Origin: a virus
DNA: 64,000 nt
Virus record (IMG/VR): IMGVR_UViG_3300045988_039444
Direction: 5' to 3' (one strand)
Part shown: piece by piece, positions 28,201-63,927 of the stretch
How positions within the stretch are numbered: the stretch's first letter is position 1
Layout: every line of letters starts with the position of its first letter
Program-made: the position numbers and the translations under genes
The notes under the pieces: model-generated
Database searches by the model: none
Told to the model about the DNA's origin: nothing
The model's input: the letters and a program-made list of their open reading frames with translations, nothing else

Positions 28201-28297
28201 AAGCATTTCCAACAGCAGCATATACACTTCCATAATCTTGTAATTGTGGAGTTTTTAATGTATTAGTATCGTATCGACCTATTGCAATTTCTGCCAT
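25277..28297 (-). CDS. Large virion/tail-associated protein (about 1006 aa from the internal Met; the ORF track extends it to 28405 through the GC element).
   Basis: Long ORF. The start is placed at ATG 28297-28295 (MAEIAIGRY…), because the upstream 36 codons (MGVQPPAPPGSGAAGRSPAGG…) are the stop-free GC-rich element read in frame. The longer start cannot be excluded. Confidence 0.7.
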   Translation of the reverse strand: MAEIAIGRYDTNTLKTPQLQDYGSVYAAVGNALNQKYYQNREAYINRIANPLSQIKVTSRGQKVLDSERAKIVEGANEFKEQDNWFAADDYIYKQTENILTNEGLKAVQADYALEQQYIEDLKKSDWDTQNQNAFLLRSRLQSSDIVYDAETNTVVSGGFNGVQIGKKFDVNKYQKDVFDILSKAKADKVSFENLVTNPDMIRQYGLDVATGFDGEKLASHFVKTGSEREGITEQEIMSYAMSLLKSNPDYTNYLTTIWQNQDALTRFVKDDSSAGGHLRDYELEDYAPLFAGNPTMFALNGLGINVNELGAPTKDGKFTVNSKLPAEVKTLLDTVNKEYGVNVLDILQNKVQVPPELIQAGLQNYVDKMFESYAKGVLGATDDIENLDRTAFTQSVLSGQFINNNIQSLAGAAAGLYSYQDIKTTVGLIANPGYTAYVKARAKGKQQELETLQQYAPYLDTLGGFEVTGDSVAENINRRNEITDQMTKLSNSMNQIFTSDELGILGLNPGDGNIVKTLNISTAERLVDSAGLDEETAANLKGKLLQVQTAQRNYNNLQAKLRSDEIQLNSIFDTWNKHRDKIEGGIGWYRVNNEEAKIILDNRLDSYDKYVDYINQNYKELYNPETYSSTWVRKDGVTTGAKYLGDMLTKEEFESTLSNAADNVSNRYRKAIADAPLEFTATREIIANPSRFQQNYMAAAMVNWKKGAGNISVVQTSSGEGIGLTGMQLAKYMNFDAFPTSTTINSKGTSVTRQSNATKNSKPLSGKELGLDYDIYKTEVSPIANGIAAREGRNEYAITLFDETGAARGNIIFSEQIDPSTIARQILDNYRNIKPYAKIGGEGLQRSAGMIESQYASGFIDFDTTGANNSPAVANIADLQRTVDDLGKVEYNLNIHEPFNNSIDGNSRKVEIGRTTQGYYIKDISGLTYTDGSVHYGQFGYNAIPNSLYTINGITTNNIQYYDTINEALRPISEYVLTQYGILLDMQEAAEAIQNNRINNANIGY

Positions 28298-28333
28298 AAT
28301 TTTATAATGATTAGTTTGTAAATTAGTTGTAAC

Positions 28334-28412
28334 TCGTATGGCTCCGCCTGCTGGGCTTCGCCCAGCGGCTCCGCTCCCCGGTGGGGCAGGAGGTTGCACG
28401 CCCACTTGTCGC
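28334..28412. repeat. GC-rich repeat element, full copy (CTGGGC-TTC-GCCCAG hairpin flanked by direct GCTCCGC). Intergenic between the 1005-aa and 1042-aa genes.
   Basis: …CTCGTATGGCTCCGCCTGCTGGGCTTCGCCCAGCGGCTCCGCTCCCCGGTGGGGCAGGAGGTTGCACGCCCACTTGTCGCG. Confidence 0.9.
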
Positions 28413-28510: not shown

Positions 28511-31500
28511 TTAAGCTCTTTTACGTCTTGCAAGACCACCACAAGCAAAACCACTTCTCATGTGATTAGTTACTCCACGAGGCCATAATTTCTCGTATAA
28601 GCGGGCACTTGCGTAATTATTAACTGCTCCGGCAAGACCTTCAACTCCTTGTAACATTCCTTGTAATCCTTGCGTTCTGACTGCCATTAACTGTTGATTC
28701 AAGCCGACAGCTTTGTTATATTCATTAATAGCGTCTTGATACATAATTTGACTATTAACATTTCGAGCATTAACTCGTTCTTGCCTATTCAAATCATATC
28801 TTTGACGTTGATAATCTTTCTTAGCTCCATACAATTTATTTCGAGCAAGTTGAGCATTAATTGCAAGATTTGCTACACTATTTCGAGCAGTTTGAACATT
28901 ACTTGTGTTATCAGTAATATATCGAGCAGCTCTACGTTCTTGTGTGCCAAGTTCTTGTAATTCCTCACTAATATCATAATCTGTACTATATTGGACAGCA
29001 TCTACTTTATTACCTTTCGGAACATGAAGTGTAGATTCAAATTCAATAGCCTTTCGATTAGCACGAGTATTAAGAGCGTTACCTACAATTCCAAACAGTG
29101 AACTTGCAAGATTCATACCAAGTCCAAATTCATTAAATCCGAACTTAAATGCAGAACCACCGCCAGCACTTGCAGTAGTTTGAATTGGAGGTAAAGTAGT
29201 AAGTTTAGGAGCTGAAACTCCTGTAAGACTATAAGGTGAAGCATATCCACCAAAAGGTCTTTTCTTTCTTACCATTCCACCACAACGCATAATCGGAGCA
29301 TCATCACGAAGTCCTAAAGCAGTGGCATAAAGTTCTTGAGCTTCAAACAAATCTGCTGTTTTAGTATCAATAGCTTCAGATTCACCACGAGCTTTATTCA
29401 TTTTATAAACTAATTTTTCAATATTACGAATATTTGTTCCAGTTTGTAATTTGTTAGTTTTACTCTTATCTAATGCAGATAAAGATAATGTAACTCCATC
29501 AGCAAGTTGAATGACTTGAGCTTCTTTTTTACCTTTCATATCAGTAAGTTTCTTTGCGTAATCAGCGAAAGTACGATTTGTTCCGGGAACTTTAATTGTA
29601 TCACTGAATACTTGACCACCTTCAGAAGTTTCACGAACAACTTCACCAGCATACATTCGACCATTTTTAGCGCCGCCGCCTTCAATTTCCGAATCACCAT
29701 ATATGATTCCAGTTTCACCAGTAGCAGGATTATATTGTTCATGAGTTTGACCATAAGCAACAACACTATTAGATGAATTAGGAACTACTTGACCACCGGT
29801 GTTTAACTTTCTACGACCAACCATTCCACCTAATTTAGCATAAAATCCTGTACCTTCGGAGTAATTGCCAAGATTACTTTGTCGAATAGTTGCAACATCA
29901 TTTTCAACTTTATCTTGCATATTACCCAAAGTCTGCTGACGTTCCATTTCAGCTTGTTCAGCTAAAAGTTCTTGACGACGACGTTCTTCTTGACGCTTTT
30001 TCTTACGTCCAGTAAACAGACCAACAATGCCACCAATTAATGCGCCGATACCAGCACCGATAGGGCCAAGCCAAGAACCAGCAGCTGCACCAGTAGCAAG
30101 CGCCGCGGTTCCACCAACAGCAGCTCCAATTCCTAATCCAGTTCCAGCTCCACTTAAAGCGCTACCACCTACGATACCTTCGCCATCAGCACTATATTTA
30201 GATTCGTCAATATCACTGGTTTGAACTCGTGTACCCCATTGAACACTACCGGGGTCATTAATACTTGTTCCACCCCAATAAAATTTCCTACGAGGAGTTC
30301 CAACAAGTCCACCGAATTTAGCAGTAATACCACGAGAAGTTAAAACTTCATTATTAATCTTATTTTGCATATTAGCATAAATAGCTGAATCACGAGCCAT
30401 CAATTGATTTGCCTTTGCAATACCTTGGGCATTCAAATCAAGGTTGCCGTATTCATAAACATCACTAAGATGTTTTCGTTTAATACCAACACCTTCATTT
30501 TCAAAATAATCTCGATTGTTTTTACCAGCGATTATACTACGATAAGCATCACCAGACATAACGCCACCGAAATCTTTTCGCTTACGTCTTACAAGACCAC
30601 CACAACGAGCAACTCCACGAGCAGTAACAATTTCATTATTGATTTTGTTCTGCATATTTGCATAAATAAGTTTATCATTAGCAATCAACTTATCTACATA
30701 GTTCTTAACTGGGATTCCAGTATCATCATTCTTTCCGCCATGATATAATAAATCAATCATACCATTACCGAAAAAACTATTACCGGAATTACGAGCCATT
30801 CCTAAATAATCAGCGGTAGCGTCATGTGTAGAACGAATACCACCGAAATTATATTTTTTACGATTAGTTTTACTCATATCTTCAACATAGTTATCAGGAT
30901 TATCATCAGTATTAAAATTAGAAAATAATTTATTTCTAATCATATCATAATCATTAGAACTATTAGTTTTAAATATTTCTAATTCAGATTTATCTCTTCT
31001 TTTATTACCAGTAGTATATTCTTTAATAATACTATCTGTATTACGTTCATTAGCACCTTTTAACAATTTCTTATATTGTCTAAAACCAGTTCGACCTACT
31101 CGATATGCAAGATTAGACATAAGATTAACAATAGGTTGAGGTAAGGTATTGAAATCATCAATACCATATTTCTCAGAATAAATATCACGAACATCATTGT
31201 AGGCTTTCGCCATACGACGATTCAATTCAGCATCAATTTGTTTTCTTGTTGCTTTACCTTTCGCTTTAACAGATTTAGTAAAATCAGAAGTATCATTTAA
31301 CTTAAAACCGGGACCAATAGTTTTAGCACCACCTTCATATGAAGCATAAGGATAATAATATTTACCATCTTTTGAACGTGAACGAACAGTTTTAAGTTTA
31401 TTATTTTCTTTAACACGAACAAATTCTTTATCACCAGTCAATTCGTTATCCCAAATATGTTGAGAATACTCATTAATATAACGAGTAACTTGACGAAGAC

Positions 31501-31528
31501 TATCAGGATTAACTTTACGATTAGACAT
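28511..31528 (-). CDS. Virion-associated protein (1005 aa) with an N-terminal lysozyme-like (GH24/T4-lysozyme-like) segment, a Gly-zipper transmembrane-like region and five basic GG(L/M)V-x-RRKR…GG repeats. Candidate ejection/cell-wall-penetration protein.
   Basis: Lysozyme-like N-terminus: …YEGGAKTIGPGFKL…AELNRRMAKAYNDVR…IVNLMSNLAYRVGRTGF resembles the T4-lysozyme E…TIGIGHLL…ALINMVFQMGETG pattern. Gly-zipper: GAGTGLGIGAAVGGTAALATGAAAGSWLGPIGAGIGALIGGIVGLF. Basic repeats: ARCGGLVRRKRKDFGG, AKFGGLVGTPRRKFYWGG, AKLGGMVGRRKLNTGG, MRCGGMVRKKRPFGG, ACGGLARRKRA. There is an internal ~40-aa duplication around IYANMQNKINNE. Confidence 0.8.
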   Translation of the reverse strand: MSNRKVNPDSLRQVTRYINEYSQHIWDNELTGDKEFVRVKENNKLKTVRSRSKDGKYYYPYASYEGGAKTIGPGFKLNDTSDFTKSVKAKGKATRKQIDAELNRRMAKAYNDVRDIYSEKYGIDDFNTLPQPIVNLMSNLAYRVGRTGFRQYKKLLKGANERNTDSIIKEYTTGNKRRDKSELEIFKTNSSNDYDMIRNKLFSNFNTDDNPDNYVEDMSKTNRKKYNFGGIRSTHDATADYLGMARNSGNSFFGNGMIDLLYHGGKNDDTGIPVKNYVDKLIANDKLIYANMQNKINNEIVTARGVARCGGLVRRKRKDFGGVMSGDAYRSIIAGKNNRDYFENEGVGIKRKHLSDVYEYGNLDLNAQGIAKANQLMARDSAIYANMQNKINNEVLTSRGITAKFGGLVGTPRRKFYWGGTSINDPGSVQWGTRVQTSDIDESKYSADGEGIVGGSALSGAGTGLGIGAAVGGTAALATGAAAGSWLGPIGAGIGALIGGIVGLFTGRKKKRQEERRRQELLAEQAEMERQQTLGNMQDKVENDVATIRQSNLGNYSEGTGFYAKLGGMVGRRKLNTGGQVVPNSSNSVVAYGQTHEQYNPATGETGIIYGDSEIEGGGAKNGRMYAGEVVRETSEGGQVFSDTIKVPGTNRTFADYAKKLTDMKGKKEAQVIQLADGVTLSLSALDKSKTNKLQTGTNIRNIEKLVYKMNKARGESEAIDTKTADLFEAQELYATALGLRDDAPIMRCGGMVRKKRPFGGYASPYSLTGVSAPKLTTLPPIQTTASAGGGSAFKFGFNEFGLGMNLASSLFGIVGNALNTRANRKAIEFESTLHVPKGNKVDAVQYSTDYDISEELQELGTQERRAARYITDNTSNVQTARNSVANLAINAQLARNKLYGAKKDYQRQRYDLNRQERVNARNVNSQIMYQDAINEYNKAVGLNQQLMAVRTQGLQGMLQGVEGLAGAVNNYASARLYEKLWPRGVTNHMRSGFACGGLARRKRA

Positions 31529-31624: not shown

Positions 31625-34600
31625 TTATCTTTGATTATTACGATTATCAAGAATCCATTCGGGATTAACATCAATAAGTTCCCAAAGTCTGTTATTATCA
31701 CTATTATTAAACTTCATTATACAATAAATATATTGACAAATGAATTTATTAATATCATACCATTTAGCTTTACGTTTTAGTGCAGATTCATCTACAACTA
31801 AATCAGTAATCATAAAAGGTATTTGTTTGTGTATATCATTAACACTATTAAATCTCCAAAGATTTACTTTATTAACACCAGTTGTACCATTATACCATTT
31901 ATCATTAAATTTAACAATTTTATAACCAGTACATTGGTCATCATTATGAACCAATATTTCATTAATAGTTTTATAAAATTCATTAACAGTAGGTAATAAA
32001 TTATTAACAATATCAACTCTATCTTTCCAAGCGATATTATTTAATAACTTATTATAACTATTATTATCATTAAGAATAAATTTAATATATGATTCTTTAA
32101 TAAGTTGATTACCATTATCATCTTTTAAGAATCGACCATAATTATTTTTAGATATTGCATAAATGCCATGTTTATCAAACCAGAATAATCCATTTCGATT
32201 GGTAATACCTACAATAGGATTATAGTCATGAAATGAAATCCAAGCATTAGCAATAGGACTAAAACTAATTGTGAATTGTTTATTATCAACATTTTGGACT
32301 AAATATAAGATATTAGTATCTTCATTAAATGCCCAAATTCTACCATTATTCTTAAACGGATTAATTACATCTTTTGCAAGATTACCATCAAACCATTTAA
32401 GAGCATTAAGAGCAGTCATATTACTTACTTTATCTCCATTGATATTGAAGATACGTCTATGAACTGCATCAATAACAAAATAACCAATAACATTAACGTG
32501 AGTATCAAAATAACTTTGACAACCTATATAACCACTGGGACTATATGTAACCTCTTGAGGTTCCATATTAAATATATCAGCTGTACCTAAATACGAAGTA
32601 CCTTCATCCGTATTAGAAAGTGTATCACGAAGTTGTAATAAATGTAGACCATATGTTTGTTGAATATAAAGATTTTTATTGTCAGTTTTTAATGCAATAA
32701 TTTCACCTCGATTAAAAGGCATATCTTTATAATCATCACTTCTAAATAATCGCCAATTAAGATTAGCATTTTCAGCACTCTGTAATTGACTACGAATTAT
32801 ACGATAAGGATGGTCTTGAGTTCCGGGAATTTCTTCAAAATAAGTAAATGTTTCAATACCATTCTCATTGTAAACAGGAGAATAACCTTTACCAACACTA
32901 CTATTTATAAAATTATCAACTTGATAACTTAATTGATAAAATTCGCGTAATTCATTACCACGTTTACCGTGATATTTAAAAGATTTATCTACATTATTAA
33001 TACTAAATCGAGCAAGAATATTGAATTTACTTTCAAGAGGAACAGTAAATATCCAACGATAAACAGTGGCGTTACTGTCTAATTCTTTTGCTTGAGCATC
33101 ACCATAACGATAATCAGATGATGGAGCAGTAGCTCGAAGGGTTATATATCCAATAAATGTATCACCAACTAATGAAGTTATTATTTCAGAAGAACCTTTA
33201 ATATTAATTACATTAGATGCAATTTGAAGTTTCTGATTATTAACATCAGAATAAAGTGTTTCAGAATTATTAATTAAATCGGCAATATATCCTCTTGCCC
33301 ATTCTTCATTATCTGTACCTTTATTAAATCCATCAAAACCTTTTTCAATACGATAATAACTATCGCCAGCAATATTGTTTTGAGAACTAATATTAGCATT
33401 GATATATTCAAGTGAAACATCTTTAGTTGCACGAGAAGTATCAATAGTAAGACTATTAATGTCAGCATCTAAGAATCGAGTTCCAGATTCATTAGGATTT
33501 GTATCAAATCCATCAAAATCTTCACCTTTCCATTTAGCTGGAAATACTTTTATATCATCATCAAGTTCTTCATTTTTAACAAATTTAAGAACATCAGTTT
33601 CAAAGCATAGAGGTTTAAGTTTACCTCGAATACTATTTATCTTATTATAGAGATATTCAAATGTATAAAATCTTGCATTATCTCCACCAAAAGGATTTTT
33701 ATAAGTTTGATTCTTACCAAAATTATTAGTTTCAGTATCTCGCATTGCGAAACCTTGTGTAACAATTCGAGAATTATTAATATTATGTTCAACAAAGAAA
33801 TAAACTATTGAACTAATATATTTATTCATTAAATCTGTTTTACCAGCAAGATTAGCTTTGATATTAATATTAGGACTTAATGTATAAGTAGGATTCCATT
33901 CAGAAGAAGTAGAATATAATTGGGTTAACCAATTAAATGTCGGAGCAGTTGAACCATTAACTTTATAACTTAATCGAGCTTCAATTAAAATATATTTAGT
34001 TTCTTTTGCATCAAGATTAATTACGAAATTAGTTTTGGTATTAATTGTATTACCAATAAATGTAGCTTTACTATCAGATGCTAAAAGATTAGATTCAGAA
34101 ACTTCATAATACCCAGTTTCAACTTCAGATTCTTCTGAATCAATCTGTTTAACTACCGATGTAGCATCATAAACTTTTGTAGTTAAATTTATACCAGCAG
34201 GTATTAAACTATCTCCACCAAATGTAGGACTACATTTAACACCAATTAATTGACTTGATGTACTCTCACTTGTTATCTCCAATACTACAACTTGATAATC
34301 AGAAGGATTAACTCCACCTTCAGAATCTTCAGTTGTATACGGTAATGGAAGACTTGGTAATTTCAGTTTACCTTTTGTTAAAGAACGACCTTTTGCTTTA
34401 ACTGTTGTATGTCCAGTCGAAACTCCGTATAAAGTAAAATAACGATTACGAGCTATTGTAGGTTTTTCACTACCAACACCAATTTTAACAATTTCATCTA
34501 CTTGTTCAGCAGCATCAATATCAGGTAAACTCTTCCAACTCGGACTTATAATCTTACTAATACTTTCAGATTTATAAGGAATTTTATGAGCATTTTGATT

Positions 34601-35899
34601 AGTAGAACCTACAGGATAAGCTTCAACATCATAATTGTTAGCTTTCCAAGGAATATGATGTATATTTACAAGGTCACCTTTATAATCATAATATCCAGCA
34701 TAAAGAACATAAACTTCACCACTCTTAAAATAACGTCGAGTACTATTAATATAAGAAGAACTTGGATTCCAACTTAATTGAACATCAAGATTGTTCTTTG
34801 TAAACTCTTTAAGTTCACTATCAAGTTTACTATAATCAAGAGTTTTTACATTACCTCGAATAAGTCTATTATTGAAATTAACAAGAGTATTATCTCGAAT
34901 ATATGATATGTTTTTAATAAAAATATCATCAAGACTTATAGTAGATAAATATGAAACATCACTTACAATATGAGTAGTACTTACACCACTAATTGAAATG
35001 TCATCAGTTTCATATGATAATTGAGCTTCGTCAGTAATATAAACAATAGCAAATCTACAATGTTTATATTTAATACCACTATTTCTAAAACTAATAGTAA
35101 TATTCTTATTGATTTCGATACCTAACGCATAATCTTCTTCGTAATTACCACAAACAATAAGTGATGTACTCAAAGGAGAATAGTTTGTATAAGTACCATC
35201 ATCAAGACGATATTTAATTGCTATTTGATAAGCACCAGTTTTAAGATTACCACCGTCTTTAACTTCTAATTGAAGTTCAGGATAAGTAACATTTGGAATA
35301 AGATTAAACGAATCAACTTCATCAACAGTGATGTCATATCCTATCGCAGTATCATCTCCATTGTTACCATCATAAAACGGGTCAGTCATATTAATAATTC
35401 TTGTTTCATTTGCTGATTCATCAGTTCCCTCAGTAAATGTAACAATCAAATTTTCTTTATAATTATATATATAATCTCCATGAATTGGTCTATCAATACT
35501 GAATCCAAATGCACCCGATGTACTATACAAACAACGTTTTACAGTTGGGTTATTATCATCAAGATTAAGATATATAATAGCGTCGTTAGTTTGTAAATCA
35601 GATTTATCTGCATTATTCCAGTGTTCTACAACGCAAAAAAGTACAACACCAACATTAGTTGGAATTGTACCTATAATATTATATTTGTGATTATTGGCAT
35701 CACTATAAATATAAGGAATGATATGCCGATTTGTCGGATGATTTTCAAGAATATCATCTAATTCACCTATGAAATCAAATCCTCTTTCATTAAAATAACT
35801 TTGACCTTTATTATCAATAGTTATATTTTTAGCATATCGTAAAGATTTATCTTGTGCAATATGAGGTGAATTATCTAAATCAAGACCTAAAACTTTCAT
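31625..35899 (-). CDS. Large beta-rich tail/structural protein (1424 aa).
   Basis: Uninterrupted 4.3-kb ORF with Asn/Tyr/Gly/Thr-rich composition typical of phage tail and fibre proteins. No catalytic motifs recognised. Confidence 0.8.
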   Translation of the reverse strand: MKVLGLDLDNSPHIAQDKSLRYAKNITIDNKGQSYFNERGFDFIGELDDILENHPTNRHIIPYIYSDANNHKYNIIGTIPTNVGVVLFCVVEHWNNADKSDLQTNDAIIYLNLDDNNPTVKRCLYSTSGAFGFSIDRPIHGDYIYNYKENLIVTFTEGTDESANETRIINMTDPFYDGNNGDDTAIGYDITVDEVDSFNLIPNVTYPELQLEVKDGGNLKTGAYQIAIKYRLDDGTYTNYSPLSTSLIVCGNYEEDYALGIEINKNITISFRNSGIKYKHCRFAIVYITDEAQLSYETDDISISGVSTTHIVSDVSYLSTISLDDIFIKNISYIRDNTLVNFNNRLIRGNVKTLDYSKLDSELKEFTKNNLDVQLSWNPSSSYINSTRRYFKSGEVYVLYAGYYDYKGDLVNIHHIPWKANNYDVEAYPVGSTNQNAHKIPYKSESISKIISPSWKSLPDIDAAEQVDEIVKIGVGSEKPTIARNRYFTLYGVSTGHTTVKAKGRSLTKGKLKLPSLPLPYTTEDSEGGVNPSDYQVVVLEITSESTSSQLIGVKCSPTFGGDSLIPAGINLTTKVYDATSVVKQIDSEESEVETGYYEVSESNLLASDSKATFIGNTINTKTNFVINLDAKETKYILIEARLSYKVNGSTAPTFNWLTQLYSTSSEWNPTYTLSPNINIKANLAGKTDLMNKYISSIVYFFVEHNINNSRIVTQGFAMRDTETNNFGKNQTYKNPFGGDNARFYTFEYLYNKINSIRGKLKPLCFETDVLKFVKNEELDDDIKVFPAKWKGEDFDGFDTNPNESGTRFLDADINSLTIDTSRATKDVSLEYINANISSQNNIAGDSYYRIEKGFDGFNKGTDNEEWARGYIADLINNSETLYSDVNNQKLQIASNVINIKGSSEIITSLVGDTFIGYITLRATAPSSDYRYGDAQAKELDSNATVYRWIFTVPLESKFNILARFSINNVDKSFKYHGKRGNELREFYQLSYQVDNFINSSVGKGYSPVYNENGIETFTYFEEIPGTQDHPYRIIRSQLQSAENANLNWRLFRSDDYKDMPFNRGEIIALKTDNKNLYIQQTYGLHLLQLRDTLSNTDEGTSYLGTADIFNMEPQEVTYSPSGYIGCQSYFDTHVNVIGYFVIDAVHRRIFNINGDKVSNMTALNALKWFDGNLAKDVINPFKNNGRIWAFNEDTNILYLVQNVDNKQFTISFSPIANAWISFHDYNPIVGITNRNGLFWFDKHGIYAISKNNYGRFLKDDNGNQLIKESYIKFILNDNNSYNKLLNNIAWKDRVDIVNNLLPTVNEFYKTINEILVHNDDQCTGYKIVKFNDKWYNGTTGVNKVNLWRFNSVNDIHKQIPFMITDLVVDESALKRKAKWYDINKFICQYIYCIMKFNNSDNNRLWELIDVNPEWILDNRNNQR

Positions 35900-48106: not shown

Positions 48107-51100
48107 TTAATTAGATTCGACATTACCAACCCTAAATATAGGATGTTCAATACCATTACCTTCTATTTGCATATAGTCAATACCATCATTTTCAAATACT
48201 GGTTCAGGTACTAATTCAATAGTTGTAACACTATGATTTGCAAGATTATCATAACTTTGATTATATTCAGTGTAGCCATCACGTCTAACCAAAATTACAA
48301 CCTTTGAATCATAAGTACCACTAATATGAGCTATACCTTGATAATCAGTAACGATAGTTTTAACAGAAGAACTAAACCAACAACTAATACCTGTGGTAAT
48401 AGGAGCTTTAGTAACAGAATCTACAAATTTAAGAGCTATATAATCTTGACCTTCTTTCGGATGTAAATCAATATAATTGACAACAGCTTCAGAAGGTTTA
48501 GCTGCAATAAACAATGCAGGTTCAGTAGCTTCATAACGAGTATCGCCTAAAGTCTTATAATTACGTTCGAAACCAATCGGATTAGCTTCACTAACATAAC
48601 CATCTTCTGATGAATCACAGTTACCTATCTTTTTACCAGTTTCATCATAAATGGTATCACTAATCATGCAACCAGTTAAAGCATCCCGTGTACGAACTTT
48701 AATAAGGCCGTTATTATTACGAAGACATAATATCTCAACTGTTTTATCAGTATCAAATACTACTTCTTCACTACCAATATTATACCAATCAGAAGATAAC
48801 GGTAAAGCATAATAAGTTATAACACTATTTTTATTCTTTGTGATTACCAAAGGTTCATCAGGTCTGGTTGTACCAACAGTAGTTCCAGTACTTGATATTT
48901 CTTTAATATCAGCAGCTAAATAAAGTTTATTACTATCATAAATTTCATAAGCCTTGATGGTTACAGAAACCTCTTCGGGTTCAGGCGGTAACTCTTCAAG
49001 TACAATAGTAACACTATGTTCACCAGTAGAATTAATCGTACCAGTTCCAGTGTTAGTTATATAACCAGTTTTAGAAGCTCGGAAATCAACACTTGTTCCA
49101 ACTGGAGCTGTAATAGCCTCAGATTTACCAGCAGTCAATTCATCATTATTGAGAGGTTTCCAATCACTTTCAGTACTGAGTTTATACTCAAACGTAACAC
49201 CGTCTAAAGCAGTAGATTCAGTATTTACAGCAGTTGCATAGATAGTACCAGATTGAACTGGAACTTTATCCATTTCAACAGTAACTTCTGCGGTAGGAAT
49301 TGCATAAGTTACCAGTTGTTCAACCTCTATATAACCCGACGAAACAAACCTTAAAATTCGGCTCGTATTGACATCTCCGATGAGTTGTAATGGCGTATCT
49401 TTTGTAACTTGACCTAATATACCACCCGTGTCTTTATCATAGACGTATGCGGCTATTTTGGCCTTTGTTTCGCTATCAACTACCGTAAGACTTACAGCAC
49501 CTTGTTCAACCGGTAGAGCAATAAGAGTAATATCACGAATTATATTCTCATCCAACGTAATACGCTCTTCATAAGTTTCATATCCACTTGCACCAACTTG
49601 AATTAAAATATCACGCGGGTCATAAGTTTCATATGTAAGAGTACCAGTACCTTGAGCAATAACTACATTAGAAGGTTTATCAGTAAATATAATTAAAGCA
49701 TTATCAGGAGTTGCATTTACAGTTAATGTCTTTTTAGTCTTAGGTGTAAGAACAACATTAATTGTCGTATCTTCAGCACCTACATCGACATAAACATCTT
49801 TTGTAATGTAATTCTCTTTTTCTACAATATAATGTAAACGACTTTGAATTAAACATTCAAGACTTGCACTGCCAACACCTACCGATTCTTTACCTTCCGA
49901 ATTAATCATTCGTATAGTAGAATCAAACGGAACAGCTTCAATCTTAATTGTTATATAATCTTCTTCATTTCGAGGAATACGAATCCAAAGTGTACCATCT
50001 TCAAACGTAGTAGGAATTTCGCTTGTAACTTCAATTTGATTAATACTGTTGCTACGAACATGATTATTATGTTCTACAACAATACCATAAATCTCATTAA
50101 TAGCATCTACAATACGTTTGTTATCAGTAACAAGTTCTTCAGAAGTTTTATCTTGCTTATTAATAAGCAAACCTTGAAGTTCTTGAGCTTTTTGTTTTAA
50201 TTTCTCAATATCACTTGCGGCTGTTGGTAAACCAACTTGTGCGGCAGTAACTCTATGAGGATTATCATAATTACGAATATGAGCATTGAAATTATCTTTG
50301 TCATTCTCGTAATCTTCTTTATCAAGTTTCTTGTTTATAGCAGCCCAAACATCTTGAAACTTTTTATTAACTTCTGTAACATGATTGTTAATCCAAACAT
50401 TCAACTGTTTGAACCAACCTTTAACCCTATTTTCAAGAGCATCAATGTACTCTTTTTGAGGTCGAGATACAGGTTTATCCATATCGGCAGTGTTATCAAC
50501 ATTGCCAAGACCAACTTGTTCTTTTGTTACCTCATGAGGATTAAACTTATTATTAATATGTTCAAATAAAAGTTTTGTAAGTTGTTCAACAGGATTTAAG
50601 TCCTCAGCTGTAAGCTCACGAACATATACTTGAACATCAAGAATCTCATTAACAGCATCATTAAAATCAAAATTGGTCTTTACATTCGTCCGATAAATCC
50701 ACCAAGATTTACCTTCATGAACATAAATACCAGTAAGAGTAAATATCTGATTACTTATGATACCTTGTACTGTAATTGTATGTATAGAACGAACAATTGG
50801 TACAAGTATATAAAGATATTGTTGAGTTGATTTAACCCACGGAACTTTATATTCATAATGTCCTACATCAATATTTCGAGATTCAAACTCGGTAATCTTT
50901 GCAGAACTAATATCAGATTTTTCAGTTAGCTTAAATAGAGCACTATTATCGTAAGCAGTTACATTAGTTAAGTCTATTTCAATCCTCTCCTTTGTCCTAT
51001 ATAAATATAGGTGGCCGTTTTTTCGATAGTACATATATAATGTAGGAACTGTTTTAACACCAGCACCTTCACCATCTACTGTACCAATATATTCTCCGGT

Positions 51101-51181
51101 TTGGCCATTATAAACACTCGGATATACACCATCTTCAAGCACACCGAGCGCTACAACATTTCGAAGATTAATTACTGCCAT
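48107..51181 (-). CDS. Tail fibre / receptor-binding protein (1024 aa).
   Basis: Two copies of the tail-fibre-type motif NPH-VT-x2-QVGL (NPHEVTKEQVGLGNVDNTADMDKPVS and NPHRVTAAQVGLPTAASDIE). Ig-like beta repeats. The C-terminal motif DGIDYMQIEGNGIEHPIFRVG is shared with the 571-aa protein. Confidence 0.75.
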   Translation of the reverse strand: MAVINLRNVVALGVLEDGVYPSVYNGQTGEYIGTVDGEGAGVKTVPTLYMYYRKNGHLYLYRTKERIEIDLTNVTAYDNSALFKLTEKSDISSAKITEFESRNIDVGHYEYKVPWVKSTQQYLYILVPIVRSIHTITVQGIISNQIFTLTGIYVHEGKSWWIYRTNVKTNFDFNDAVNEILDVQVYVRELTAEDLNPVEQLTKLLFEHINNKFNPHEVTKEQVGLGNVDNTADMDKPVSRPQKEYIDALENRVKGWFKQLNVWINNHVTEVNKKFQDVWAAINKKLDKEDYENDKDNFNAHIRNYDNPHRVTAAQVGLPTAASDIEKLKQKAQELQGLLINKQDKTSEELVTDNKRIVDAINEIYGIVVEHNNHVRSNSINQIEVTSEIPTTFEDGTLWIRIPRNEEDYITIKIEAVPFDSTIRMINSEGKESVGVGSASLECLIQSRLHYIVEKENYITKDVYVDVGAEDTTINVVLTPKTKKTLTVNATPDNALIIFTDKPSNVVIAQGTGTLTYETYDPRDILIQVGASGYETYEERITLDENIIRDITLIALPVEQGAVSLTVVDSETKAKIAAYVYDKDTGGILGQVTKDTPLQLIGDVNTSRILRFVSSGYIEVEQLVTYAIPTAEVTVEMDKVPVQSGTIYATAVNTESTALDGVTFEYKLSTESDWKPLNNDELTAGKSEAITAPVGTSVDFRASKTGYITNTGTGTINSTGEHSVTIVLEELPPEPEEVSVTIKAYEIYDSNKLYLAADIKEISSTGTTVGTTRPDEPLVITKNKNSVITYYALPLSSDWYNIGSEEVVFDTDKTVEILCLRNNNGLIKVRTRDALTGCMISDTIYDETGKKIGNCDSSEDGYVSEANPIGFERNYKTLGDTRYEATEPALFIAAKPSEAVVNYIDLHPKEGQDYIALKFVDSVTKAPITTGISCWFSSSVKTIVTDYQGIAHISGTYDSKVVILVRRDGYTEYNQSYDNLANHSVTTIELVPEPVFENDGIDYMQIEGNGIEHPIFRVGNVESN

Positions 51182-57690: not shown

Positions 57691-60015
57691 TCATTGCTTT
57701 AACTCTTTTTGTAACTTTATTCTATTAACATCAGAAGCAGTGTAACCAGATTGAGCAGCCATAGCTTCATCTTTATCTATATTACCATTTCCATTGGTAT
57801 CGACTTTAAGTCGCATATTCCAAATCTCTTTTTCACCTTCTTGTTTAAGAATCTCAAGATTAACATCATGTTCTCTATCAAGAGCATTTTGTTGAGCTTC
57901 AAATTCTTGTTTAGCTGCTTCACGCTGACTAACAATTTGTTCAACTTCTGCTTGAGCTTGTTGTTGAACTTGTTGCATTTGAAGTTCATAATCTCGACGA
58001 GCTTGAATAGCTTTCTTAATATTCTTAGCAATAGAAGTAATATTATTATTTTCAATAGCTTCAATAGCAACTTCCAGTTGGTCATTCTGACCTGCGCTAA
58101 AAGCAAGTTCTTTCATCATATTCAGCTTATTCTGAACATCGGCATTATTACGAATATAAATTCCAATATTACCAGAGAAATCAGAAGAACCATCAATATC
58201 AACTACAACAACTTTATTAGTTGTCGGGTCTACATAAGAACCTCGTTTACCGTCAATCCAAGCAAACTTACTGTAATCAATATTTGCAACATAATCACGT
58301 TCACGGAAGAGATTAAAACATTCAAGACTCCAAACACTTCCGGTCATTGCTTGAGAATAATTCGATTCATTAACAGCCTTACCTGCATAATCTTTAGCAT
58401 CACCAAAGCGAGCATTATTCATATTAGCTGCTTCCCAAGCTTCTGCTTTCAAACCTTGCTTAAGATTATCAAGCATTTGAATATAATTCGTAATAGCACT
58501 TGTAGCTACTTCTCGAATAGATTGTAAAGCATTAGGTTGTGCATCAGAATCATCAAACGGTAAGAAACTATCTTTATTCGCAACAGCAAGACGTTCCTCG
58601 GTAGTCATGTCACTACTATCAGCGAGAATACTTTCAGGGAATAATAGCCAAGACTTAAACTTAGCTACTGCACGTTCTTGTTGTAAAGTATAAATACGAT
58701 AAAGAGCAAGATAAGGTAAAACACGGAAAGGAATAGGATTACGAAGATTATCTTTATGTAAACCTACAATACCATTATAAGGTAATTTACAATCACTATA
58801 ATTGTTAAATCTTTCACGTTGAACTTCGATAGGTCGCGGCTTAATATAAATACCACTATGACAACCACCTATACGCCAACCTTCCCAAACTTGATTTATC
58901 CATTCCCATTCAATTTCAATATCACCAGCGGAAGTATCAAATTCATAATTTTCGTCTACAACACTTTCAACGATATTTCCTAATAAATCTCGATGTTTAA
59001 GAATACCTTGTTTAATTTCAGTTTTCCAAACATAATGATAAATATCAATTTCTTTACCATATAATCGAGCTTCACTACGAAGTGCTTCTGCGTTAGTATG
59101 TAAGATAGCTTTACGTTCAGCAAAATCTGTTTTATTGAAGATTTGAACTATACCATCGGGAGCATCATATTTAGGAGATACAGTATAAATATCTTTAAGA
59201 TAATTCATTTCTGCATCTGTAAGTTCATCACGAAATCTATCAATGATTTGAGGAATAGTCATTCGATAGACACGAAGTCCTGCATCATCATCTTCAATAT
59301 ATCGTTGACCACTTTCAATACGATAATATTCGAGAGGAGATATTACTTGAAGATAAACATCACCTTTATAAACTTCTCGATAAGTATAAACCTCTTCACA
59401 AGCCCACCAATAGAAATAGCATTGTTGATATTTGTCTTTTGCTTCAACAATAGTATTGATAAGTTCAAGACGCTTTTGAGTTGTAATAGTTACATCATCA
59501 ATCCAATCGTTAAGAACTTCCTCAATAATATCGTTAAGTTCACCTTGCTTAATTGTCTTTTGACCAGTATTAAATCCTGCTTCATTAAGACGATTAATAA
59601 TTTCTTGATTACAATAAGCCATTACTTTATCAGCAAGAACTTTATTGCGAGCAAGAGTTACAGAAGGGTCATTATTAAATACTTGATAATTAGAGAACAT
59701 ATTAATAAATTCTCCCATATATCGTTCTTTAATAGGAGTGAGAAAATCTACATCACGTATCTCACCATACATGACAGCTTTCTCACCAACCTTATCAATA
59801 TAATTCCGAAGAACATATTCATAAGTTTTAGGGTCTACTAAACCATTAGCAGCATCAAGAAATTTCTGCGTAACAGTTTTATCATTCTGACCAATAGCAA
59901 GATTAATCCAATAATTACAATTAGGAATGTACCAAGCTTTCGTTTGTTTTGTAGCAGTACTTGCACGCTGGTCAGGCATAACAAGTGGAGTTGCTCTTAA
60001 ATCACGTTCACTCAT
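57691..60015 (-). CDS. Portal protein candidate (774 aa).
   Basis: Size, a Q-rich helical C-terminus (…QMQQVQQQAQAEVEQIVSQREAAKQEFEAQQ…) and position directly downstream of the terminase-like gene, with a 4-nt overlap. Confidence 0.5.
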   Translation of the reverse strand: MSERDLRATPLVMPDQRASTATKQTKAWYIPNCNYWINLAIGQNDKTVTQKFLDAANGLVDPKTYEYVLRNYIDKVGEKAVMYGEIRDVDFLTPIKERYMGEFINMFSNYQVFNNDPSVTLARNKVLADKVMAYCNQEIINRLNEAGFNTGQKTIKQGELNDIIEEVLNDWIDDVTITTQKRLELINTIVEAKDKYQQCYFYWWACEEVYTYREVYKGDVYLQVISPLEYYRIESGQRYIEDDDAGLRVYRMTIPQIIDRFRDELTDAEMNYLKDIYTVSPKYDAPDGIVQIFNKTDFAERKAILHTNAEALRSEARLYGKEIDIYHYVWKTEIKQGILKHRDLLGNIVESVVDENYEFDTSAGDIEIEWEWINQVWEGWRIGGCHSGIYIKPRPIEVQRERFNNYSDCKLPYNGIVGLHKDNLRNPIPFRVLPYLALYRIYTLQQERAVAKFKSWLLFPESILADSSDMTTEERLAVANKDSFLPFDDSDAQPNALQSIREVATSAITNYIQMLDNLKQGLKAEAWEAANMNNARFGDAKDYAGKAVNESNYSQAMTGSVWSLECFNLFRERDYVANIDYSKFAWIDGKRGSYVDPTTNKVVVVDIDGSSDFSGNIGIYIRNNADVQNKLNMMKELAFSAGQNDQLEVAIEAIENNNITSIAKNIKKAIQARRDYELQMQQVQQQAQAEVEQIVSQREAAKQEFEAQQNALDREHDVNLEILKQEGEKEIWNMRLKVDTNGNGNIDKDEAMAAQSGYTASDVNRIKLQKELKQ

Positions 60016-63000
60016 TTTAGGAATCTATTAACTTTACGACCAGTGTTATTAGTTTTACTTTTCGAGTTAGCTTCTCGTTCAAGTAAAAGAGAATCTTTAC
60101 GAAATTCAAACATTGCAACGATAGCCGAACTTAATCGGTCTGCATTACGTCCAAATATAAATCTATCCAACTCTAATAAGAAACTTATATCATAAATTTG
60201 ATTAAATCTATATATTGGTGTATCGTCGGACGTTTTTCCGACAATTTCGTATAAGAAATCCCGCACCATACGCATACCTTCCAACTTAATATCGCCATCA
60301 CCAATGACAATACCATAACCTGTAATACGAGGGCCATCAACACTACGATTAATATAACTACTTGGGTCTTTTAATAACTTATCTCTATAACCCCATTTCT
60401 TGAAATTAGTAACAAGTTCACCAGTACCAGCCTCATAAAGAACTTTACAATTCCAACGTAAACAAGCATAAAGAACAAGTTTATCGACAGCTTCCATAGT
60501 ATCAAGACGACCACAATAAGAAGCAACAAGTCGTTTACCCATGTAAGGAGTTTTGCTGTTAGTACGCATCCACACTTGAAAACTTGCAAGTGAATTTTTT
60601 GTACTAACTTCTTCTTTATTTTTATCTACACGATATGGGTCATAAGAAATAAAATAAAGACTACCATCATTTGGAATAGGAGAATAAAATTCTCTTATAC
60701 AACCATGAACATCAGTCTTTGAATTATGAGGTACATCAGTTATATATTCATGGAATCTATCGGAACCAAATATAGTTCGTTCAATACATTCCTGTTTAGT
60801 AATAAATCTAACACGTCCATCATCAAGTATATACCAACCATCTTCATAAAAATGATTAGACTTATCATATTTAATAGCGTTAATATGATTAGTAAGTTCC
60901 GGACTGTGAAAAATGTTCTCTTGTGTGTTCGTAAATGCCTCATTAGGACTGTTAGCACGTTGACCTACATAAATATTATATTCACCAGCATCTTTCTCTT
61001 TTTCTGCACCACGTTTCTTATCATAATCATCCTTCCAAGAAGCAAACAGTAAAGAATTACCATCTTCTATAAAAGGTTCATAATCCCATATCTGCGGAAA
61101 AAAGAAACCACAAACAGCATGTCTACTATTAGCATCCCAGATATTTTCCATAGGAAGCATATCATTCTTTCCGGGATTATAAAAACAATTACTGAAAGCT
61201 TCCCAGTTAGCACCTTTTGTACCACCCGTACCATATACACGAATAGTACCAATTCGCATTGCACCTGATTCACTATTAGACATCATAACATCTAATGCCT
61301 TTTGAAGATTAGGACAGTTATGAGTAATAGTAAAATCTTCTAATAATACAAGATTATCACCATCTACTTCAAATCCATAATATCTACCTCGACCAATAGG
61401 TTTAATATCAAATCGAGTTTCCAATACATTCTTTTGTAATGAAATATAATTTTCTGCTTTTTTACGATTTATTTTAGTAGGAATTAAATGACAACCAGAT
61501 AAAATAAAAATTCTATAATAAGTAACACCTCTTATAATCTTTTCTGAAACAGTGGTTTTCAATCCAAGACTTCTACAAATATAAACAATATCATAAACAA
61601 TTGCAGGGTCTTTTTGAGCTATTTCAAAATTATGTTTTTTAGAATTATAAGAACCATCAGTGTCAATAATACCAGCTAAAAATTCTAATCTACTTTGTTT
61701 ATCAGTATAAATGTACTCTTTTGGAATATATTTATTATGAAGAACTCCCATATTAAAAAGTTCTTGTCTAAACCAATTATCCGAAGCATCTTCACATTTT
61801 ACTAATGTAATTCTTTTAGCATTAGAATTAGTATCTGCAATCGAATAATCAAGATTATTATTTTTTGAATATTCTTTTAAATAATCAATTACTTCACTAT
61901 CTTCATTGGTAAATCTACATGTATCTTTATCTCCATCACCAATCCATAATCCAAAAACATAAGGTTCAATTTTAACATTCTTTTTATCAAAATCAATACA
62001 TGTTTTTATAAGAGCATGATTATCTTTCCAGCGAGGATGTTCTTTAATCATATTTATATAATCTGGAGCAGTCATAGTAATCGGTTTACATATATTACCA
62101 TAACTTTTCCTATAAATCATATAAATATCATGCTTACTATTTACAACATGAGATTCACCATTTAAAGGAGTAACTTCGTATAAATCATCTTCACCATTTA
62201 TAGTAGCTAATACTGTACGAGGATTTCCGTCAGGTCCCATAAGTTTATCACCTACTTTAATATCTTGAACAAATTTAATTTGTCCATCAGACATTATAAA
62301 ACCAGTATTTTCCCCAAAACATTTACCTGCTTCCTCAAAATCAGTTTCAATAGCTTTCTTACCTACTGCGGCACTTTCATTTTTACCAATAGCAACACTT
62401 AAAAGTTTACTACGAAATCCGAAAGCCTTTTGACCTTCTTTTGATTTCTTATATCCAAGTTCAATACCTTTATCAAAGTTCTCACTTAGATAACCTCTTC
62501 GCCAATAAGTTTTATCTTCATACCAATCAAGATTAACTTTAACCATATAAGATGTAGCACCTTTTTCAGTTAAGTAATCCATTTGGTCAGCAGCAAGTGT
62601 AACGGTTACATTCTTATTTGCGTTAATAGTATTAGCTGCTTGACTACCACGTTTATATGAAAAACCTTTACGACGAGCTTTTGCCTTACATAAGTTACAA
62701 CTATTGTTAGCAATCAGCTCGTCAATCTTAAAGTTCCAATAATCTCCATCCCAAAATCGAGGAAAGCCTTCAACAGTATTAACCTTAAATCTTCCCTCTT
62801 TATCTAACTGTTTACGTTCCTTTTCATTAGGAGCACGTTCGATACGACCATAATTGAGATAATTATAATGGTCGCCAGTTATACGAACTTTATGAAGTAA
62901 AGACTTACGTTCAGCATCAGATTTGGCTGCTAAATAAGCAGGAATATCTTTAATGTATAATTTACAATATGCTTGAACACCTTTAACTCGTCTATCCATT

Positions 63001-63380
63001 TCACGTTGCCAAAACTTTATGGCATTAGGACTATCATCAGGTTCAAGACAATAACATCCATGTTTTTCATAAAAGTCTGCAACACGACTAAATATTTCAG
63101 TACCTACGAAAACAAAGTCTATTTTCATAAGTACACCACCACTTTCACCTATAAGAAAATCGTTATCTCTGTCAATCCAAGGTTTACCAGTAAAACGACA
63201 AATACTTGAAGATAAAGGCTTGTAACTTTCTTTATCTTCAAGTATATAATCTATAAACGGACTTCGACCAGTTTCATAACCATAACGATTGTCTTTACGA
63301 TAATGTTTCTGTTTCGTTAGGAGCGTTAGATGCTCTATCATTTGTTCCGTCATAGCTATCTCTATATTCAGCTCCACCAC
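60012..63380 (-). CDS. Terminase large subunit-like protein (1122 aa precursor) interrupted by a 335-aa intein.
   Basis: Position next to the portal-like gene. The C-terminal region has RNase-H-like acidic motifs (LYFISYDPYRVD…, KVLYEAGTGE). Removing the intein gives about 787 aa. The ATPase Walker A motif was not confidently located by eye. Confidence 0.5.
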   Translation of the reverse strand: MVELNIEIAMTEQMIEHLTLLTKQKHYRKDNRYGYETGRSPFIDYILEDKESYKPLSSSICRFTGKPWIDRDNDFLIGESGGVLMKIDFVFVGTEIFSRVADFYEKHGCYCLEPDDSPNAIKFWQREMDRRVKGVQAYCKLYIKDIPAYLAAKSDAERKSLLHKVRITGDHYNYLNYGRIERAPNEKERKQLDKEGRFKVNTVEGFPRFWDGDYWNFKIDELIANNSCNLCKAKARRKGFSYKRGSQAANTINANKNVTVTLAADQMDYLTEKGATSYMVKVNLDWYEDKTYWRRGYLSENFDKGIELGYKKSKEGQKAFGFRSKLLSVAIGKNESAAVGKKAIETDFEEAGKCFGENTGFIMSDGQIKFVQDIKVGDKLMGPDGNPRTVLATINGEDDLYEVTPLNGESHVVNSKHDIYMIYRKSYGNICKPITMTAPDYINMIKEHPRWKDNHALIKTCIDFDKKNVKIEPYVFGLWIGDGDKDTCRFTNEDSEVIDYLKEYSKNNNLDYSIADTNSNAKRITLVKCEDASDNWFRQELFNMGVLHNKYIPKEYIYTDKQSRLEFLAGIIDTDGSYNSKKHNFEIAQKDPAIVYDIVYICRSLGLKTTVSEKIIRGVTYYRIFILSGCHLIPTKINRKKAENYISLQKNVLETRFDIKPIGRGRYYGFEVDGDNLVLLEDFTITHNCPNLQKALDVMMSNSESGAMRIGTIRVYGTGGTKGANWEAFSNCFYNPGKNDMLPMENIWDANSRHAVCGFFFPQIWDYEPFIEDGNSLLFASWKDDYDKKRGAEKEKDAGEYNIYVGQRANSPNEAFTNTQENIFHSPELTNHINAIKYDKSNHFYEDGWYILDDGRVRFITKQECIERTIFGSDRFHEYITDVPHNSKTDVHGCIREFYSPIPNDGSLYFISYDPYRVDKNKEEVSTKNSLASFQVWMRTNSKTPYMGKRLVASYCGRLDTMEAVDKLVLYACLRWNCKVLYEAGTGELVTNFKKWGYRDKLLKDPSSYINRSVDGPRITGYGIVIGDGDIKLEGMRMVRDFLYEIVGKTSDDTPIYRFNQIYDISFLLELDRFIFGRNADRLSSAIVAMFEFRKDSLLLEREANSKSKTNNTGRKVNRFLK
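61317..62321 (-). other. Intein (Hint domain plus a double-LAGLIDADG homing endonuclease) inside the terminase-like gene.
   Basis: Starts with Cys (…EEAGK|CFGENTGFIMSDGQIKFVQDIKVGDKL, block A) and has a block B T/H segment (EVTPLNGESHVV). Two LAGLIDADG motifs (YVFGLWIGDGD and EFLAGIIDTDGS). Ends …LLEDFTITHN|C with His-Asn followed by a +1 Cys. Confidence 0.8.
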
Positions 63381-63927
63381 GAATTGACGTTACACCTTTT
63401 TCAATCTTATCCCACTTATCATTAAGCTCAGTAAGACTTTCAACTCGTGCAGGAATTTCATTAGCAATTTTAATAATCTGTTTAAGAGTATCTTCACAAA
63501 GAGCTAAATCTTTCATTTCAAGTTCTTTCGACATTAAATCTTCTATACCATCAGTTAATGTACGAACTAACTTACTTGAAAGATTCAAAGATTTAATAGT
63601 AGAATTAATTAAATCTTCAACAGCTGTAATATTAAGATTTGATTTTACAAATTCAATAGCAGATAAAACAACTTTATCCGGTAGATAAGATTCATCTAAA
63701 CCAGCATTAGACTTAGCATAAGCATAAGCTTCTTTTTTAGTAAGTCCTGCTTTCGTTACATAACCTTTTCTATCGGATAAATATAATATAAATCTAAATT
63801 CTTTTTCTGCAAAAGATTTATCTTTACTATCATCACGAGCATATATCTGTTGAAGTAAAGGATATTGAAGTATCTCTTCTACATCAAGAATTAGTTTATC
63901 ATTTTCTATCTTAAATCCATGTACCAT
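63295..63927 (-). CDS. Hypothetical protein (210 aa) upstream of the terminase-like gene. Small-terminase candidate by position only.
   Basis: ORF whose 3' end overlaps the first 86 nt of the 1122-aa ORF. Confidence 0.45.
   Translation of the reverse strand: MVHGFKIENDKLILDVEEILQYPLLQQIYARDDSKDKSFAEKEFRFILYLSDRKGYVTKAGLTKKEAYAYAKSNAGLDESYLPDKVVLSAIEFVKSNLNITAVEDLINSTIKSLNLSSKLVRTLTDGIEDLMSKELEMKDLALCEDTLKQIIKIANEIPARVESLTELNDKWDKIEKGVTSIRGGAEYRDSYDGTNDRASNAPNETETLS

Follow-up and report, generated by a model that had tools for sequence, protein, structure and literature searches.

A predicted class-1 intein with a PI-SceI-type endonuclease domain in the large terminase of a crAss-like phage

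The question raised by this locus is whether a 335-residue segment within a phage packaging gene belongs to the mature protein or is an intein and, if it is an intein, whether it is still spreading. The segment occupies positions 61317-62321 of a 64,000-nucleotide (nt) stretch of viral DNA, IMG/VR record IMGVR_UViG_3300045988_039444 (termed here the window; all coordinates are window positions), and both it and the gene that contains it, which encodes the large terminase subunit (TerL), lie on the minus strand. An earlier note on this DNA had described a 335-residue insertion bounded by an initial cysteine (Cys1), a terminal His-Asn and a cysteine at position +1; exactly this insertion is present, on a strand that the note did not specify. 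The open reading frame (60012-63380, minus strand) runs without interruption through the segment; its likely start is the ATG at 63353, which yields a precursor of 1113 residues, and the open frame reaches back to a GTG at 63380. The plus strand of the segment contains many stop codons; the minus strand reads as 335 stop-free codons, CFGENTGFIMSDGQ...LLEDFTITHN, preceded by ...IETDFEEAGK and followed by CPNLQKALDV. The exact 1113-residue precursor is also present in public protein collections. Taken together, the evidence described here makes it highly probable that the segment is a canonical class-1 intein with a PI-SceI-type double-LAGLIDADG endonuclease, inserted into the TerL of a crAss-like phage and predicted both to splice and to home.

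Boundaries, identity and host gene of the intein

The boundaries are defined by comparison with alleles that lack the segment. When the precursor is spliced in silico and used as a query, thousands of 778-residue proteins are found that are 99-100% identical to it, and these alleles correspond to the precursor minus residues 345-679. The intein-free protein P0052 alone occurs on 407 contigs, and its BLASTP alignment to the precursor consists of two collinear blocks that abut exactly at the junction of K344 and C345. At the level of DNA, deleting exactly these 1005 nt from the window gene makes it collinear with four intein-free loci, without a single gap and with 29-36 mismatches over 2337 nt; in intein-free homologues the extein flanks are contiguous and 98-99% identical, and the empty site reads ...GAGGAAGCAGGTAAA/TGTCCTAATCTTCAA... 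(here and below a slash marks a splice junction). Because precisely these 1005 nt are absent from intein-free alleles, the alternative of a native domain is excluded. Thus the alignment of the exteins with intein-less homologues, which the earlier note had recommended as a check, yields boundaries that are exact to the nucleotide, rather than the native domain lacking clean boundaries that it had named as grounds for rejection.

The segment matches three Pfam families, each above its cut-off: Hom_end_hint (PF05203; 8.4e-17, 62.3 bits against a cut-off of 32.1), Hom_end (PF05204; 3e-11, 43.8 bits against 21.1) and LAGLIDADG_3 (PF14528; 2.2e-9, 37.9 bits against 22.5). Its best match by sequence in the PDB is PI-SceI, the intein of yeast VMA1 (2.3e-18), in an alignment that pairs D218, D326 and K301 of PI-SceI with D129, D222 and K197 of the intein. 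The two LAGLIDADG motifs lie 92 residues apart, with D129 and D222 as their terminal acidic residues. An AlphaFold (AF2) model built on 33 homologues (predicted local distance difference test, pLDDT, 94.6; predicted template-modelling score, pTM, 0.91) consists of a Hint beta-domain that is split by two alpha-beta-beta-alpha-beta-beta-alpha halves, whose elements in the model are H120-129/E/H/E/E/H and H208-222/E/E/H/E/E. When this model is used as a Foldseek query, PI-SceI is the top match (1ef0/1vde; E ~1e-25, template-modelling score 0.77-0.80 on the query), and further matches are to archaeal VMA and PI-PfuI inteins, fungal Prp8 inteins, I-DmoI and I-Tsp061I. The C-terminus, ...FTITHN/C, places His-Asn directly before a cysteine at +1, which is the arrangement characteristic of class 1, and N61 and H64 of block B are presumably equivalent to N76 and H79 of PI-SceI. 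Judged by its residues, then, the element is a canonical class-1 intein in which all class-1 splicing residues are present, and its endonuclease is, by sequence and modelled fold, of the PI-SceI double-LAGLIDADG kind and of an active type, with cleavage predicted. The Hint blocks A and B and the two LAGLIDADG motifs quoted in the earlier note are all there, far more than chance would yield, and the landmarks of splicing and homing that it had considered intact prove to be conserved: the class-1 residues, both catalytic aspartates and the lysine equivalent to K301.

The host gene, which had been described as 'packaging ATPase/nuclease-like', is the large terminase of a crAss-like phage, a member of a group that is abundant in the human gut. 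The flanks of the intein match the terminase large subunit family phrog_6681 (1.4e-82), the gene adjoins that of the portal protein, and in relatives Crass_capsid is encoded two genes beyond the portal. Comparison of the TerL gene with GenBank phages by megablast gave no match; by tblastn, the nearest relative of the spliced protein is the TerL of uncultured crAss-like phage cr127_1 (68% identity; Crassvirales, Crevaviridae), and other crAss-like phages are 31-34% identical to it. The spliced protein matched no Pfam family at E <= 10, no terminase in NCBIfam, and no terminase in the PDB, either by phmmer or by a 60-member profile; because crAss-like TerL proteins are too divergent for such Pfam and PDB sequence searches, membership rests on PHROGs and on fold. 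In the latter regard, an AlphaFold model of spliced TerL (pLDDT 89.4) is matched by Foldseek to T4 gp17 (E 4.2e-12), followed by the large terminases of Sf6, D6E, P74-26 and HK97. The locus is present on all four of the contigs OHKK01000062, OLNN01000114, CEAR01029167 (these three occupied by the intein) and OLGH01000138 (empty), which are assigned to alpha_gamma, subgroup gamma_5, in the tables of Yutin et al. 2021 (PMC7886860); the same tables give a CRISPR-spacer host match to Alistipes sp. for those contigs. According to a review, the Crevaviridae are the gamma group of crAss-like phages.

The insertion separates K344 from C345, three residues beyond the invariant glutamate of the Walker B motif (hhhh[D/E]E-A-G-K/C). 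It is thus next to a catalytic motif, much as the earlier note had anticipated. Conservation around the site was assessed in 60 diverse crAss-like TerL proteins, 20-51% identical. Across these, the P-loop reads K-x-R-x-x-G-[FY]-S, with K225, R227 and G230 invariant and S/T at 232; the glutamate E341 never varies and follows E or D at 340 and a run of four hydrophobic positions, a textbook Walker B (LIIIDEAGK or VVVDEAGN, for example, in relatives); and in the C-motif G373 and T374 are invariant and G376 is nearly so. In the TerL model a strand (220-225) leads through the P-loop into a helix (231-245), and another strand (336-339) precedes the acidic pair, which is followed by a helix (348-358). 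We take the acidic pair to be analogous to D255/E256 of T4 gp17, and the Walker A motif to be a deviant one resembling the lambda gpA type. Sequence and model thus place the intein within the loop that follows the presumed catalytic glutamate, at a distance of three residues; and since this is a 38-kDa insert within the ATPase centre, the unspliced precursor should be inactive. The +1 cysteine is not a conserved terminase residue: position 345 is Phe in 34 of the 60 relatives and Cys in 5 intein-free ones, as it is in cr127_1, whose equivalent site is 48/60 identical to the empty site of the window gene.

The intein-free relatives with a cysteine at this position include members of the same broad clade (cr127_1, P0178, P0181 and P0183), plus P0216; their cysteine could be either a pre-adaptation or a footprint of past occupancy by an intein.

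Occupied and empty alleles in the phage population

Within a 90%-identity protein collection, occupied and empty alleles fall into separate clusters (that of the precursor has 8030 members), and in protein clustering the empty alleles are singletons, so that cluster sizes are uninformative about the two states; allele counts were therefore taken from direct pattern scans of DNA. An exact-pattern scan of IMG/VR found 8 contigs with an empty junction and 11 with an occupied one. When a 26-mer from the common left flank was used to scan metagenome contigs, 80 loci were found, 54 of them occupied and 26 empty. Each state is found on near-complete genomes of 88-93 kb.

In a distance tree of the exteins, the two states are mixed among the branches, and both occur in a divergent sub-lineage as well (L015 occupied, L022 empty). 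The mean extein distance is 0.0154 between the two classes and 0.0163 and 0.0141 within them, and no single-nucleotide polymorphism of the exteins is linked to the state of the intein (mean r2 0.09), including those at +17 and +26 nt. In a set of 27 complete occupied genes, the intein has a synonymous diversity of 0.009, as against 0.075 for the N-extein and 0.063 for the C-extein, a roughly 7-fold reduction that should be read with the caveat that the intein is AT-richer than the exteins (26.7% versus 34.0% GC); in a smaller IMG/VR set the values for N-extein, C-extein and intein are 0.094, 0.076 and 0.033. The low synonymous diversity of the intein indicates recent horizontal spread: the intein is far younger than the extein variation that surrounds it, and it is not linked to that variation. 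This is read as a young element over an older, recombining gene pool because homing predicts exactly such a pattern, and ordinary shuffling of an old indel would not lower the diversity within the element. The intein is genuine and probably still spreading. The suggestion of the earlier note that it is 'likely active and mobile' thereby gains indirect support from population data, with the activity itself standing as a prediction.

All 41 complete metagenome inteins are 335 residues long and stop-free, and C1, N61, H64, H334 and N335 are invariant among them. The window allele, which is 2 nt from the population consensus, keeps D129, D222 and K197. Diverged lineages of the same intein also exist: among 15 aligned members of the precursor's cluster, the inteins of P0158 and P0160 are 76% and 85% identical and keep all of the key residues, and tracts of the P0158 type have recombined into window-type inteins, at nt 9-129 in L015 and L016 and at nt 820-900 in L014. 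The DNA of P0158 is not on record, no complete allele of the P0158 or P0160 type was found in IMG/VR, and comparisons with diverged lineages at the DNA level are drawn from the partial allele L017 and from mosaic tracts. In these comparisons the ratio of non-synonymous to synonymous divergence (dN/dS) is 0.13-0.27; for L017, which covers residues 150-335, it is 0.21 (0.23 in the endonuclease part), and the synonymous divergence on this contig is 0.059 in the C-extein versus 0.32 in the intein. Both LAGLIDADG motifs are retained in intein variants down to 56% identity.

Within the intein, variation is highest at codon 30 (62232-62234, minus strand), where Pro30 is replaced by A, H, L or S in 9 of the 41 alleles; this may be a mutational hotspot or may reflect diversifying selection. 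Three disrupted inteins (L096, L105 and L132) were considered as pseudogenes and rejected: they contain scattered single-base indels or unrelated sequence, pointing to sequencing or assembly errors, and lie on contigs of 1.1-4 kb, the sole recorded coverage being 1.6x (L132). Contig CEAR01029167 (106,584 bp) carries the locus twice (L102 and L119), occupied in both cases, which is likely due to terminal redundancy, that is, to concatemeric assembly of a genome of ~92 kb.

Predicted mechanism and alternative explanations

Splicing would follow the class-1 pathway. Cys1 would attack the peptide bond between K344 and C1 in an N-S acyl shift; the resulting thioester would be transferred to Cys+1 by trans-thioesterification; Asn335 would then cyclise, assisted by His334; and an S-N shift would leave a 778-residue TerL whose ATPase centre is whole. 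Packaging should be impossible without TerL, so the intein must be spliced out in the numerous near-complete genomes that bear it. For homing, either the freed intein or the precursor would cleave the empty site when an intein-free genome infects the same cell, and repair of the break by recombination with the occupied allele would insert a copy of the intein there; the occupied allele itself would be immune because its target site is split by the intein.

Several observations weigh against this interpretation. The Pfam match to Hom_end_hint spans just the N-terminal 59 residues of the intein, so that the C-terminal splicing blocks rest on motif, family alignment and structure match (a PDB search with blocks F and G alone was non-significant, with E 0.9 to the C-terminus of a Prp8 intein). 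The generic NCBIfam models of intein N- and C-termini gave no match at E <= 0.1, the sole NCBIfam matches being to a model for intein-bearing V-ATPase A (3.1e-8) and, weakly, to an rSAM-intein model (0.018); this miss reflects the sensitivity of the models, not a defining biochemical feature. Within the population, the ratio of non-synonymous to synonymous polymorphism (pN/pS) is 0.38 for the intein (0.43 for its endonuclease part) versus 0.04-0.06 for the exteins, which is compatible with relaxed constraint. No co-conversion tract is detectable around the junction, and the missing linkage between intein and exteins could stem from pervasive homologous recombination without any endonuclease. 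A minority of alleles, moreover, carry changes within the endonuclease motifs, namely D129N (L082), D222N together with G130V (L080), and G130E (L011, L013 and L081); L080 and L082, on 90 kb contigs, have 4-5 private amino-acid changes each and both have Y292C. Such alleles are candidates for copies that have lost endonuclease activity, of the kind that a homing cycle would be expected to produce.

The elevated pN/pS of the endonuclease domain, the motif substitutions and the lack of any co-conversion or linkage signal near the junction would also suit an alternative in which the intein splices but its endonuclease is inactive in the window allele or lineage, the presence/absence pattern being the leftover of a past invasion that phage recombination has since shuffled. 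This is unlikely, inasmuch as the window allele retains both catalytic aspartates and the lysine and is nearly identical to the consensus, neutral shuffling of an old indel predicts something other than the ~7-fold lower synonymous diversity of the intein, and between diverged lineages the endonuclease part has a dN/dS of 0.23, with both motifs kept in variants as little as 56% identical. A different proposal is that the intein serves in addition as a conditional switch, whereby splicing (dependent, for example, on the redox state of Cys1 and Cys+1) gates assembly of the packaging ATPase and so times DNA packaging. That the insertion occupies a loop of the ATPase active centre, where the precursor should be inactive, and that both nucleophiles are cysteines would accord with such a role, and inteins of ATPases have been suggested to have regulatory functions (PMC5050341). 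It is nevertheless very improbable, since complete genomes commonly carry an intein-free allele of the same extein sequence, which implies that the phage can dispense with the intein, and nothing that would mark conditional splicing in particular was found. As for the notion that the 335 residues are an accessory domain of TerL that is never excised, or an artefact of assembly, the uninterrupted reading frame speaks for it and nothing else does: apart from the 778-residue homologues that lack exactly this segment, diverse crAss-like TerL proteins are 650-800 residues long with a contiguous EEAGK-x-PNL, the segment has the families and the fold of inteins and endonucleases, and the same allele recurs on dozens of independent contigs from different studies. 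Its probability is accordingly negligible.

For the reading of the element as an intein that both splices and homes, the population data also permit a tentative, more specific conjecture, which may prove wrong: that the gamma_5 population has been caught in the middle of a homing cycle, with a young intein lineage sweeping through an older, recombining terminase pool of which about two-thirds is now occupied, with older intein lineages recombining into it, and with the first endonuclease-dead alleles (D129N, D222N) making their appearance.

Related inteins, neighbouring genes and significance

The closest well-known counterpart is PI-SceI of S. cerevisiae VMA1 (PDB 1VDE, 1EF0, 1LWS), which has the same Hom_end_hint plus Hom_end architecture, Cys1 and an N-x-x-H block B. 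The two inteins also share the motifs GLWIGDG and LAG(L/I)ID(S/T)DG, the aligned pair of catalytic aspartates, the K301-equivalent lysine, a C-terminus of the form YYG...FLL...HN/C, and an ATPase as host protein. They differ in that they are only ~20% identical, in that PI-SceI has 454 residues rather than 335, its extra length including the DNA-recognition region in its Hint domain, and in that its host is a eukaryotic V-ATPase, whereas here the host is a phage terminase with the insertion site after Walker B. In mycobacteriophages, inteins likewise lie within the TerL ATPase domain beside catalytic motifs, with intein-bearing and intein-free partners and conserved target sites (Kelley et al. 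2016, PMC5050341); members of this set have been shown experimentally to splice, one within the Walker B motif included, and two at other sites to cleave intein-free partner alleles. The mycobacteriophage terminases, however, are of the Terminase_1/6 type and unrelated by sequence to crAss-like TerL, which lacks a Pfam match; their Walker B intein, TerL1-e, is a class 3, DnaB-b-like element (PMC5050341) and of a different lineage from the class-1 intein described here; and their hosts are Actinobacteria rather than Bacteroidota.

Within the crAss-like phages, Yutin et al. 2021 stated that 'TerL typically contains an intein' in the Delta group and described up to 3 inteins in a single genome of the Zeta group (PMC7886860). 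Those inteins occur in the same phage order and the same host gene, representatives having insertions near Walker A, Walker B and the C-motif; the Delta example is of a 'Hint-Hop' type, whereas the window intein combines Hint with LAGLIDADG. The same study described alpha-gamma genomes as being without mobile-element insertions (PMC7886860), a statement that is qualified by the presence of this intein in its own gamma_5 genomes. A full-text literature search on inteins together with Crevaviridae found only two reviews. Terminase inteins, including crAss-like ones, have already been described (PMC5050341, PMC7886860), and there is nothing conceptually new in finding another.

Relatives of the window intein occur at the same site in other phages. 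P0173, from another crAss-like phage whose 96 kb contig shows the same order of TerL, portal and capsid, has a 335-residue intein, IDYEEAGK/CFGKGT...VVHN/CPNLEQ, that is 56% identical to that of the window, within exteins ~47% identical to the window TerL. P0255, whose TerL is ~29% identical to that of the window, has directly after the Walker B EE a 148-residue mini-intein (residues 321-468) without an endonuclease domain. The Hint parts of this element share 43-52% identity with the window intein, and it probably descends from the same lineage through deletion of the endonuclease.

Other crAss-like TerL proteins (P0260, P0261, P0285, P0293, P0298, P0315 and P0318) have insertions of ~220-400 residues at other positions, near Walker A (query ~232-249), near the C-motif (~370-378) and elsewhere, and several of these insertions are weakly similar to the window intein. 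The ATPase domain of crAss-like TerL thus appears, from sequence comparison, to be a multi-site target for inteins, as it is in mycobacteriophages. Farther afield, inteins 32-37% identical to that of the window occur in P-loop proteins, in Rpb1-like RNA polymerase proteins (with junctions ...NLMGKR/C...HN/CDQTGRTVIGPDPT) and on contigs of giant-virus metagenome-assembled genomes in IMG/VR (L052, L058, L060 and L065), with P0126, P0132 and P0140 also among these relatives; this suggests that a PI-SceI-like intein lineage is shared by phages and eukaryotic large DNA viruses.

The features of the locus are collected in Table 1. Directly upstream of TerL, an open reading frame of 210 residues (63295-63927, minus strand) overlaps its start by 59 nt; it has no PHROG match, and its position would suit a small terminase subunit. 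In agreement with the crAss-like assignment, a 1424-residue frame elsewhere in the window (31625-35899, minus strand) has a match to the Crassvirus muzzle protein family (PF25731, 4.8e-11). Two giant frames, 4114-17292 (4392 residues) and 17296-25272 (2658 residues), both on the minus strand, have no Pfam or PHROG match; frames 25277-28405 and 28511-31528 have no PHROG match, and 48107-51181 has no Pfam match. These frames may encode counterparts of the huge virion or RNA-polymerase-like proteins found in other crAss-like phages. A hidden Markov model made from the 33-sequence intein alignment found no second intein of this family in the window, and no tRNA genes were found there.

Table 1. 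Positions of the intein, its splicing and endonuclease motifs, and the surrounding terminase and portal features within the window
Feature	Position	Strand	Details
TerL precursor gene	60012..63353	-	1113 aa from ATG 63353; phrog_6681
Portal gene	57691-60015		Directly downstream of TerL, 4-nt overlap; phrog_6547, 3.5e-68
N-extein	62322..63353	-	344 aa, ends ...AIETDFEEAGK; 344/345 identical to P0052 residues 1-345
Walker A-like P-loop KARRKGFS	62658..62681	-	Conservation in 60 TerLs; AF2 strand, loop, helix
Walker B strand and acidic pair ETDFEE	62331..62348	-	[E/D]340, invariant E341; model strand 336-339
Intein	61317..62321	-	335 aa, 1005 nt
Cys1, predicted N-terminal splicing nucleophile (block A)	62319..62321	-	
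Block B N61-S-K-H64	62130..62141	-	N..H kept in consensus of 33-sequence intein alignment
LAGLIDADG homing endonuclease domain	61467..61991	-	~residues 111-285; Pfam, AF2, Foldseek
LAGLIDADG motif 1 FGLWIGDGD	61929..61955	-	Intein residues 123-131; D129 aligns with PI-SceI D218
LAGLIDADG motif 2 LAGIIDTDGS	61650..61679	-	Intein residues 215-224; D222 aligns with PI-SceI D326
Blocks F and G, YYGFEVDGDNLVLLEDFTITHN	61317..61382	-	End H334-N335; family consensus YYGF..D...FLL.DFT.THN
+1 Cys, C-extein residue 1, predicted second splicing nucleophile	61314..61316	-	Cys in intein-free alleles and cr127_1 too
C-extein	60015..61316	-	434 aa, CPNLQKALDV...RFLK; remaining ATPase domain and nuclease domain
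C-motif GTGG	61221-61232	-	Within C-extein

In practical terms, the gamma_5 TerL has 778 residues after predicted splicing, and pipelines that use TerL as a marker for the Crassvirales should strip the 335-residue intein before alignment or clustering. The compact, PI-SceI-like intein, with its defined natural target, is also a possible scaffold for the engineering of protein splicing or of meganucleases. Of more general interest is the well-sampled presence/absence polymorphism, with dozens of near-complete genomes in each state, through which intein homing, recombination between intein lineages and decay of the endonuclease can be studied. If the population is indeed in the middle of a homing cycle, then the endonuclease would be a weapon of competition between phages, cutting the packaging gene of co-infecting intein-free strains, and public longitudinal gut metagenomes would offer a natural system in which the dynamics of such a cycle could be tracked.

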